The translations under genes and the position numbers were made by a program. A stretch of DNA of 64,000 bases from Enterobacteria phage P922: sequence record OR999189.1. One strand, written 5' to 3'. The notes below the pieces were generated by a model. The model was not told the DNA's origin and made no database searches. It was given only the letters and a program-made list of their open reading frames with translations. Of the stretch, positions 42,517 through 44,659 are shown piece by piece (within the stretch, counting starts at the first letter, position 1; every line of letters begins with the position of its first letter).

Positions 42517-43005
42517 ATGAATATATTTGAAATGTTACGTATAGATGAAGGTCTTAGACTTAAAATCTATAAAGACACAGAAGGCTATTACACTATTGGC
42601 ATTGGTCATTTGCTTACCAAAAGTCCATCACTTAGTGTTGCCAAATCTGAATTAGATAAAGCTATTGGACGTAATTGCAATGGTGTAATTACAAAAGATG
42701 AGGCTGAAAAACTCTTTAATCAGGATGTTGATGCTGCTGTTCGCGGAATTCTGAGAAATGCTAAATTAAAACCAGTTTATGATTCTCTTGATGCTGTTCG
42801 GCGCTGTGCATTGATTAACATGGTTTTCCAAATGGGAGAAACTGGCGTAGCAGGATTTACTAATTCTCTACGTATGCTCCAACAAAAACGCTGGGATGAA
42901 GCAGCAGTAAATCTAGCCCAATCTAAATGGTATCGTCAGACACCTAATCGCGCGAAACGCGTAATCTCAACATTTAAAACAGGAACTTGGAAAGCGTATA
43001 TATGA
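42517..43005 (+). CDS. e: lysozyme (endolysin) e
   Basis: 162 aa; near-identical to T4 lysozyme ([33 protein letters not shown]) with a few substitutions; two TATAAATA late promoters upstream. Confidence 0.95.
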
Positions 43006-43283
43006 AAACATATAGTGAATTTTTATCAGAATCTATTCTTAACGAAGCTACTGACACATTTGCAACTAAGTTAGGTGCAGCTTTGGTTGAAGCCGAAAGT
43101 CTATTAGCACGTATTTCTGAACTTGCTAGTAAGATAGATACTCGCAAATTTGAACGTACCAGCGATATCGTTAAGCTTGAAGCCTTGTTGCGTATGTGCG
43201 ATAAACCGGAAGAAATCGCTAAGAACGGCTCGCTAATGAAACAACGTCTTGAAAAATATATTTCAGGCGCGTCAGAAAAATAG
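43002..43283 (+). CDS. internal-protein-like protein with capsid targeting leader
   Basis: Track ORF starts at a TTG; ATG at 43002 gives [11 protein letters not shown] leader (93 aa); overlaps the lysozyme stop (ATGA). Confidence 0.6.
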
Positions 43284-43284
43284 T

Positions 43285-43314
43285 GTTTACTTCCTCCAAG
43301 GGTTTTGATACTAT
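43285..43314 (+). promoter_or_regulatory. early promoter for denV
   Basis: GTTTAC at 43285, TGATACTAT at about 43306..43314. Confidence 0.5.
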
Positions 43315-43341
43315 ACATTCATCAACTACTTGGAGGAAATT

Positions 43342-43755
43342 ATGACCCGTATCAATTTAACACTTGTTTCTGAATTGGCCGACCAACATCTTATGGCTGA
43401 GTATCGTGAATTACCACGCGTATTTGGTGCAGTCCGTAAACATGTTCAAAACGGTAAATGTGTAAAGGATTTTAAAATCTCTCCAACATTTATATTAGGC
43501 ACAGGTCACGTAACATTCTTTTACGACAAACTCGAATTTTTACGTTTACGTCAAATCGAGCTAATCGCTGAATGCTTGAAACGTGGTTTCAAAATCAAGG
43601 ACACGACTGTCCAGGATATTTCCGACATCCCTGCCGAATTTCGTAATAATTATGTCCCGGACGAAGCGTCCATTGCGATAAGTCAAGCACGCTTAGATGA
43701 AAAAATTGCTCAACGTCCTACTTGGTACAAATACTATGGTAAATCAATTTACTAA
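43342..43755 (+). CDS. denV: endonuclease V (pyrimidine dimer DNA glycosylase)
   Basis: First ATG gives [34 protein letters not shown], matching T4 endonuclease V from memory. Confidence 0.9.
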
Positions 43756-43767
43756 GGAAAAATTAAA

Positions 43768-44022
43768 ATGTATCAAGAATTTATCGCTGAAGCAGATGCC
43801 AAAGGCCCCAAATTTAAAGTTAAAGCTTTCATTGGTGATGCCGAAGATTTTGGCTCATTAAAACGTAATGGGTATTCTTTCTCAGGCGGCAATGGTAAAG
43901 AAATAAACACCTATGCAAAACGTAGTGAAATTGCTTATGTTGTAGTAAGCCCTAAAGTAGATGTTGACGATATTGGATACGATTTTAACAACTTCGGAAT
44001 TATTTCTGGCGGTAAAGCTTAA
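43768..44022 (+). CDS. internal-protein-like protein with variant leader (MYQEFIAEA, lacks KT)
   Basis: 84 aa; leader matches the capsid targeting consensus except for loss of two codons after Met. Confidence 0.5.
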   Translation: MYQEFIAEADAKGPKFKVKAFIGDAEDFGSLKRNGYSFSGGNGKEINTYAKRSEIAYVVVSPKVDVDDIGYDFNNFGIISGGKA

Positions 44023-44025
44023 ACA

Positions 44026-44055
44026 GTTTACGCTTAAGTATTAATATGGTATAAT
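44026..44055 (+). promoter_or_regulatory. early promoter for the IPIII-like gene
   Basis: GTTTAC at 44026, TGGTATAAT at about 44047..44055. Confidence 0.5.
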
Positions 44056-44083
44056 TACTCTATCAAAACAAACAAGGAAACAC

Positions 44084-44659
44084 ATGAAAACGTATAAAGA
44101 ATTTATCGCTGAAGCTTCTGTGGAAAAGGCCAAAGGCATTAATAAAGATGAGTGGACTTACCGAGGAAATGGTTTTGACCCTAAAACAGCCCCTATTGAA
44201 CGATACTTAGCTACAAAAGCTTCCGACTTTAAAGCTTTCGCTTGGGAAGGACTTCGCTGGTGTACTGATCTAAATATTGAAGTTGATGGGCTTAAATTTG
44301 GCCATATTCAAGATGTTGTTGCTAGTAACTTGGACGCAGCTTTTGTTAAAGCTGACGGTGACCTTCGTCGCTGGAATTTAAAATTATTCTCTAAACAGAA
44401 AGGCCCAGTGTTTGTGCCTAAAGCTGGTAAATGGGTTATTGATAATAAATTAGCTAAGGCTGTCAACTTCGCCGGTCTTGAATTTGCCAAGCACAAATCG
44501 GCATGGAAAGGTCTTGATGCAATGGCTTTCCGTAAAGAATTCGCCGAGGTTATGACTAAAGGCGGCTTTAAGGCAGAACTAGATACCTCTAAAGGTACGT
44601 TTAAAGACGCTAATGTTCAGTATGCTTACGCCGTTGCTAATGCAGCCCGTGGTAATTAA
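44084..44659 (+). CDS. internal head protein III-like
   Basis: 191 aa; leader MKTYKEFIAEA; size close to T4 IPIII (about 194 aa). Confidence 0.6.
   Translation: MKTYKEFIAEASVEKAKGINKDEWTYRGNGFDPKTAPIERYLATKASDFKAFAWEGLRWCTDLNIEVDGLKFGHIQDVVASNLDAAFVKADGDLRRWNLKLFSKQKGPVFVPKAGKWVIDNKLAKAVNFAGLEFAKHKSAWKGLDAMAFRKEFAEVMTKGGFKAELDTSKGTFKDANVQYAYAVANAARGN

Follow-up and report, generated by a model that had tools for sequence, protein, structure and literature searches.

The interval between the lysozyme gene e and the vs.8 homolog of Enterobacteria phage P922 raised a question about the make-up and origin of an internal protein (ip) locus in a T4-like phage. Three ORFs in this interval began with a leader of the capsid-targeting (CTS) type, denV was located between the first and the second of them, and the leader of the second was two residues short. 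We asked what these genes are, how the arrangement and the short leader arose, and what the proteins are likely to do. Here, the window refers to the whole stretch of DNA that was analysed (64,000 nucleotides of record OR999189.1).

Gene content and layout of the locus

The window was a Tequatrovirus sequence, and positions 42400-44900 were 99.6% identical to vB_EcoM_Nami and 99.5% identical to EcNP1. Some part of this segment was matched by 894 phage records, and in at least 73 GenBank records, one continuous match took in 80% or more of the 2.5-kb query. As shown in Table 1, the gene order on the plus strand was nudE, e, ORF93, denV, ORF84, ORF191 (ipIII), a hairpin terminator, and the vs.8 homolog. 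The three leader-bearing ORFs listed in the initial annotation were all present, with denV between the first and second, as it had described. The stop codon of e overlapped the start of ORF93 in an ATGA (43002-43005). The denV product was 91% identical in amino acid sequence to T4 DenV; the gene was an RB69-type allele, and its product carried no head-targeting leader. T-even phages have two highly variable IP loci (PMC2839356; PMC12373910), and an IPI ortholog was encoded apart from the locus studied here, at 34568-34855.

Table 1. Features of the e-vs.8 interval and its upstream flank, in window coordinates
Feature	Coordinates	Strand	Basis or remark
nudE	42025-42480	+	upstream neighbour of e
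Two exact late-promoter motifs, TATAAATA	42483-42490, 42496-42503	+	just upstream of e
e (lysozyme), T4-like	42517..43005	+	Pfam Phage_lysozyme; 94% amino acid identity to T4 e
ORF93, Ip5-like internal head protein	43002..43283	+	phrog_3499, E=1e-46
T4 early-promoter-like element (GTTTAC, 18 nt, TACTAT) upstream of denV	43285..43314	+	read from sequence
denV (endonuclease V, pyrimidine-dimer glycosylase)	43342..43755	+	Pfam PF03013 Pyr_excise, E=4e-14
Shine-Dalgarno sequence TAAGGA	43753..43758	+	sequence; overlaps denV stop
Relic of first two leader codons, ATT AAA (ancestral ATG AAA)	43762..43767	+	DNA comparison
ORF84, internal head protein, phrog_2667 family	43768..44022	+	phrog_2667, E=7e-19
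Early (sigma-70) promoter-like element (GTTTAC, 18 nt, TG-TATAAT) upstream of ipIII	44026..44055	+	10/12 matches, TG extension
ipIII ortholog ORF191, 191 aa	44084..44659	+	phrog_5341, E=1e-115
Terminator-like hairpin (AGGCC-N8-GGCCT, then ATTT)	44662..44679	+	closes the locus

The three ip ORFs each matched a different PHROG family, and at equivalent positions, the EcNP1 RefSeq record had all three annotated as internal head or virion proteins. Hence, the suggestion in the initial annotation that these were novel family members did not hold. The ORF93 match covered profile positions 1-85 of 85 in phrog_3499, and residues 1-82 of ORF84 aligned to profile positions 3-79 of phrog_2667. Neither Pfam nor PADLOC yielded a match for any of the three ip ORFs, and a PDB sequence search with ORF84 and ORF93 returned chance matches only. 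A search of the PMC12373910 supplements for these sequences and names found none of them, and a literature search on the names Ip4, Ip5, Ip7, and Ip10 returned unrelated papers only.

The N-terminus of ORF191 reads MKTYKEFIAEASV, and along its full length (191-192 residues), the protein was 92% identical in amino acid sequence to T4 IPIII. ORF93 was at least 99% identical in 132 phage records; with the threshold lowered to 80%, 238 phage records carried it. It was 92.5% identical to RB69 p127 and 47-51% identical in amino acid sequence to Ip5 of T2, T6, PP01, and wV7. Comparison with three relatives revealed 8-13 synonymous and 0-1 nonsynonymous differences, a dN/dS of about 0. The AF2 model of ORF93 was helical but of low confidence (pTM 0.35), so the fold search was done without it.

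ORF84, whose N-terminus reads MYQEFIAEADAKG, had relatives in 217 phage records in the genera Tequatrovirus, Mosigvirus, Gaprivervirus, and Gelderlandvirus. The initial annotation had made its reading of this ORF depend on conservation, and conserved it was: many alignment columns of the mature domain were invariant across the four genera, and dN/dS was 0.2-0.36 in comparisons with three relatives. The AF2 model (pLDDT 77) contained a small alpha/beta domain and a disordered leader, and a structure search with this model found no informative structural neighbour. We also considered whether ORF84 might be a variant of IPII. This identity was rejected because the leader was the sole significant similarity; specifically, BLASTP of ORF93 and ORF84 against T4 IPII aligned leader residues and a non-significant 11-residue stretch (E=1.1).

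An ip locus is situated between e and vs.8 in the window and also in T4, RB69, KAW3E185, and VR25. The T4 order is e-ipIII-ipII-denV-vs.8, and the initial annotation was correct that the arrangement here is unlike it. The orders in the other phages are e-p127-denV-p125, two further CTS genes, and vs.8 in RB69; e-ip-denV-ip-vs.8 in KAW3E185; and e-ip5-denV-ip10-(ORF84 homolog)-ip7-vs.8 in VR25. Because the ip-denV-ip layout prevails in Mosigvirus and Gaprivervirus and in many Tequatrovirus genomes, it is T4 that looks odd among the relatives examined. For a T4-like coliphage, this second ip locus is ordinary and has been annotated before. The window adds little, since public records already contain the three genes, their annotation, and the layout of the locus; the sole new point, a small one, is the mutational path behind the short leader of ORF84, which offers a ready test of the CTS length that is needed.

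Mosaic origin and the short leader of ORF84

Nucleotide identity between the window and T4 was about 92% up to position 43000 and again from 44699, and it was 90% in the ipIII stretch (44074-44676). ORF93 and ORF84 had no T4 counterpart, and denV was 78.8% identical to the T4 gene versus 97.8% identical to that of RB69. When RB69 was the reference, identities were 95.8% for ORF93, 95.7% for ORF84, and 81.8% for e. The locus is a mosaic: a T4-like e on the left and a T4-like ipIII on the right flank an RB69-like ORF93-denV-ORF84 module.

Colinearity with RB69 stopped at 44113, the final base of the 30-nt ipIII leader, and T4 homology started at 44074; therefore, the right junction lies inside the promoter/Shine-Dalgarno/leader cassette of ipIII. 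The early promoter-like element upstream of ipIII belongs to this cassette, which is repeated before ip genes, and it resembles the ip upstream regions of T4 and RB69. More than 30 IP variants are counted, and promoter-based cassettes are tied to IP shuffling, in the accounts given by PMC2839356 (citing Repoila 1994 and Comeau 2007) and PMC12373910. The position of the right junction fits the published cassette-exchange model, and the gene order probably arose via such an exchange, with its right junction in the repeated cassette.

The initial annotation had described the second ip ORF as beginning MYQEFIAEA, with the KT of the consensus lost and the IAE cleavage motif kept. The leader is indeed two residues short, and IAE/A is present (here and below, the slash marks a cleavage site), but the KT codons were not lost. 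The DNA at 43762-43773 reads ATT AAA ATG TAT. A deletion of the KT codons was ruled out by DNA comparison, because ATT AAA is still upstream of the ATG. In exact 34-mer searches, the ATT form occurred in five records (EcNP1 twice, Nami, ECO26.1 3-1, and LF73P3), and the form ATG AAA ATG TAT, which encodes MKMYQEF, occurred in 156 phage records. The latter form was also seen in RB69 and in the IMG/VR relatives L004-L006, of which L004 maps to phage Av-05 and L005 to phiE142. The more distant relatives KAW3E185, VR25, and S16-type phages have ATG AAA ACG/ACT TAT (MKTY). The short leader of ORF84 is explained by two substitutions: a G-to-T change that removed the original start codon and, before it, a Thr3-to-Met change that provided an in-frame ATG. 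In the first step, ACG became ATG; this change is widespread and supplies the second ATG. In the second and rare step, the original start ATG became ATT, so that the second ATG now presumably initiates translation.

An alternative is that ORF84 initiates at the ATT at 43762, which would give a full 10-residue leader, (M)KMYQEFIAE, and no truncation. The ATT AAA codons are in frame with no stop before 43768, and AUU is a weak initiator in E. coli, for example, in infC. However, AUU initiation is normally very inefficient, a strong ATG is located 6 nt downstream, and the TAAGGA is 3 nt from the ATT and 9 nt from the ATG. We regard initiation at the ATT as very improbable. Because of the 9-nt versus 3-nt distance from the Shine-Dalgarno sequence, the ATG at 43768 appears to be the better-placed start, and this spacing suggests that the same would be true in the ATG-AAA-ATG phages. 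Given the better spacing of the downstream ATG, the 8-residue leader may be the usual ORF84 product throughout that clade of 156 records.

Expression, packaging, and probable function

We think it likely that this e-proximal ip locus encodes CTS proteins that are packaged, cut by gp21, and injected, and that the injected proteins are likely GmrSD inhibitors. Several lines of evidence are consistent with head targeting. Five matches to the pattern Y-x-E-F-[ILVM]-x-E were present in a six-frame translation of the window, all of them at ORF N-termini, against an expectation of 0.07 (300 Markov-1 resamples). As summarised in PMC9026906 from Mullaney and Black 1996, leader residues 4 and 7 mainly determine targeting, and residues 8 and 10 determine processing. 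The ORF191 leader, MKTYKEFIAE/A, and the ORF93 leader both have the features of a CTS, in that they are close to MKTYQEFIAE and carry the Tyr4 and Phe7 determinants. The 8-residue ORF84 leader, MYQEFIAE/A, keeps the Tyr, Phe, Ile, and Glu, each two positions nearer the N-terminus.

By analogy with T4, the CTS would dock each protein on the scaffolding core of the prohead, and the protein would be enclosed during head assembly (PMC9026906, PMC3012670). The gp21 prohead protease would then cut after the Glu of (L/I)-x-E. Sites of this type followed by a small residue were found in all three proteins: IAE/A in ORF84 and ORF191, and both LSE/S and LNE/A (residues 13-15) in ORF93. LNE/A is kept across the ORF93 family, including RB69 and VR25, and the predicted cut in ORF93 is at this site, after residue 15, which would leave a 78-residue mature protein. 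Cleavage at IAE/A is predicted for ORF84 and IPIII, and the predicted mature ORF84 is 76 aa in length with a pI of about 8.2. The mature proteins would remain with the DNA and be injected alongside it.

For expression, two exact copies of TATAAATA, the T4 late-promoter consensus, were located just upstream of e. We found no other exact late motif before the terminator at 44662, including directly upstream of ORF84 or ipIII; one-mismatch matches occurred at chance frequency and were left out. Late expression of the locus is probably by read-through from the two promoters upstream of e, and ORF93 is probably translationally coupled to e via the ATGA overlap. Early-type promoters appear to precede denV and ipIII, each with GTTTAC, the T4 early -35 consensus, although a sigma-70 scan did not flag the element upstream of denV.

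This promoter arrangement bears on the possibility that ORF84 is no longer packaged here, and instead is a newly made cytoplasmic protein, co-transcribed with denV from the early-type promoter, or is being lost. Consistent with this are the two missing leader residues, the lack of an exact late promoter from e to the terminator, and the ability of T4 IPIII to act from the cytoplasm without a CTS (PMC9391042). Gene loss is suggested by LF73P3, an ATT-form phage in which a +1 C insertion frameshifts ORF84 after codon 14, by frameshifted, truncated, or deleted versions in other assemblies and phages, and by phrog_35655, a family of 38-aa C-terminal remnants. On the other hand, the extra C in LF73P3 falls within a run of Cs (equivalent to 43805-43808) and might be a sequencing error, and the Tyr, Phe, and I-A-E/A site are all retained. 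The 8-residue leader may also be the usual product in the 156 ATG-AAA-ATG records, in which the downstream ATG is better spaced. Furthermore, the reading frame is intact in the window, EcNP1, Nami, and the approximately 5% divergent ATT allele of ECO26.1 3-1. This intact frame in ATT alleles, together with a dN/dS below 1 and the invariant alignment columns, indicates that ORF84 is most likely still functional. We hold loss of packaging to be rather unlikely and favor a packaged ORF84. A more speculative proposal, and in our judgment an unlikely one, is that the ATT lineage (the window, EcNP1, Nami, and ECO26.1 3-1) represents a natural CTS experiment in which either MYQEFIAE is a functional minimal CTS or ORF84 is now a cytoplasmic early protein. 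If true, either outcome would refine the head-targeting rules used in T4 protein-delivery engineering.

The initial annotation had proposed that injected ip proteins are candidate anti-restriction factors, and this idea fits published work on T4, in which Ip1, Ip2, and Ip3 each inhibit one distinct GmrSD type IV restriction enzyme (PMC12373910). In addition, IPIII is needed to infect ECOR17, and host-expressed IPIII works there (PMC9391042). By analogy, the injected proteins encoded by this locus most likely block, as stoichiometric inhibitors, those type IV enzymes of the GmrSD family that attack glucosyl-hmC DNA. For the IPIII ortholog, the probable target is the ECOR17-type two-gene GmrSD; inhibition of the ECOR17-type GmrS1/GmrSD2 has been demonstrated for T4 Ip3 (PMC12373910). 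It is also conceivable, but improbable in our view, that the three proteins are mainly structural, with roles in DNA charge neutralisation or as condensation or ejection aids, and do not act against defences. The mature IPIII ortholog is basic (pI about 9.5), and in T4 heads, internal-protein lysines make contact with the phosphates of the DNA (PMC3012670). In contrast, mature ORF84 and ORF93, with a pI of about 8.1-8.2, are nearly neutral. The ip genes are not essential and vary greatly from one close relative to the next, as accessory anti-defence genes do, and the GmrSD targets of Ip1-3 have been demonstrated. Because internal proteins encounter host defences before any other phage molecule does, and because T4 Ip1-3 inhibit GmrSD enzymes specifically, ORF93 and ORF84 are reasonable anti-defence candidates for studies of host range and for phage therapy.

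Comparison with known internal-protein systems

ORF191 and T4 IPIII share the 10-residue leader type ending in IAE/A, the downstream vs.8 region, and the terminator. The ORF191 gene is downstream of denV, whereas the T4 gene directly follows e, and the two proteins differ in that ORF191 has Lys5 for Gln5 in the leader and one residue fewer near position 28. Compared with T4 IPII, ORF93 and ORF84 share only the CTS leader and the locus, and the locus studied here contains no ipII.

The predicted mature ORF84 is the same length (76 residues) as T4 IPI*, and it appears to have a mixed alpha/beta fold in the AF2 model and a CTS-type propeptide (PMC3012670). IPI* is a GmrSD inhibitor with a solved NMR structure. 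For ORF84, neither sequence nor structure comparison matched a solved structure, and no IPI*-like fold was identified in its mature domain.

ORF93 and Ip5 of T2, T6, PP01, and wV7 belong to the same PHROG family, and their similarity extends over 90% of the length. The VR25 homolog adjoining e is annotated as ip5. However, ORF93 represents a paralogous lineage located by e, and the Ip5 genes of those four phages are in the ipI/tRNA region.

A close known arrangement is that of the Mosigvirus RB69 (e / RB69p127 / denV / RB69p125 / ORF124c / ORF123c), which has the same e-ip-denV-ip order. The RB69p127 leader, MKTYMNFYQNLSLNE, differs from the ORF93 leader at residues 5-12, and this difference looks like a compensated frameshift. 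RB69 continues with two other CTS genes where the window has ipIII, and RB69p125 keeps the ATG AAA ATG start (MKMYQEF), which in ORF84 has become ATT AAA ATG.

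Putative internal-protein genes outside the second ip locus

In the first ip locus, the 35 nt preceding the start codons of its two genes, which carry a capsid targeting sequence (CTS), were identical (actattaccttatcaaaattaattaggaaaataaa). The segment is a repeated regulatory cassette, and such a repeat could drive cassette exchange. A sixth CTS-bearing ORF was located past the tRNA gene cluster, as listed below.

Features of the window beyond the second ip locus
Feature	Coordinates	Details
IPI ortholog	34568-34855	first ip locus (34568-35242); N-terminus MKTFKEFTSTATPVSTITEA...
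Second CTS gene of first ip locus	34934-35242	N-terminus MKTYQEFINEA...
tRNA gene cluster	36290-37113	10 genes
Sixth CTS-bearing ORF	37908-38471	187 aa; N-terminus MKTYAEFLTEAAK...; past the tRNA cluster
Separate 33-aa ORF	44725-44826	matches first ~25 residues of T4 annotated vs.8 (MRDSRQPVIRSS...)
Main vs.8 ORF	44789-45379	different frame from the 33-aa ORF

The start of vs.8

The RefSeq annotation of the close relative EcNP1 placed the vs.8 start at 44837, and the RB69 start was further downstream still. The N-terminal extension of T4 vs.8 may be over-annotated. The Vs.8-like protein weakly resembled both AAA domains, with a GKS Walker A-like motif, and the N-terminal domain of the terminase large subunit.

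Decay of ORF84 in related phages

In LF73P3, a phage in which the original ORF84 start codon is ATT, an additional C in a GGCCCC run (equivalent to window 43805-43808) shifted the ORF84 frame past codon 14. This frameshift could be real pseudogenization or a homopolymer sequencing error. ORF84 was reduced to a remnant (window 43964-44022; phage matches H97-H100) in some phages, namely PhAPEC2, 172859UKE1, and pEK20, and internal deletions and a denV-ORF84 fusion were observed among assemblies P0003, P0009, and P0010. Together, the remnants, deletions, and fusion suggest that the gene at the ORF84 position often decays or is deleted. The 38-aa family phrog_35655 matched ORF84 over its C-terminal 23 residues only.

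The left mosaic junction and the ORF93 leader compared with T4 and RB69

Gene e ended in ...WKAYI in the window (42994-43005) and in the RB69 type, whereas it ended in ...WDAYKNL in T4. T4 homology ended at 43000, which places the left mosaic junction in the final codons of e, at the overlap between its stop codon and the start of ORF93. In RB69, the ORF93 homolog reads MKTYMNFYQNLSLNEATD at 2501-2545 of the RB69 sequence (L009), and its residues 5-12 were unlike those of the window ORF93. This change looks like a compensated frameshift; the RB69 homolog retained Tyr4, Phe7, and the LNE|A site.
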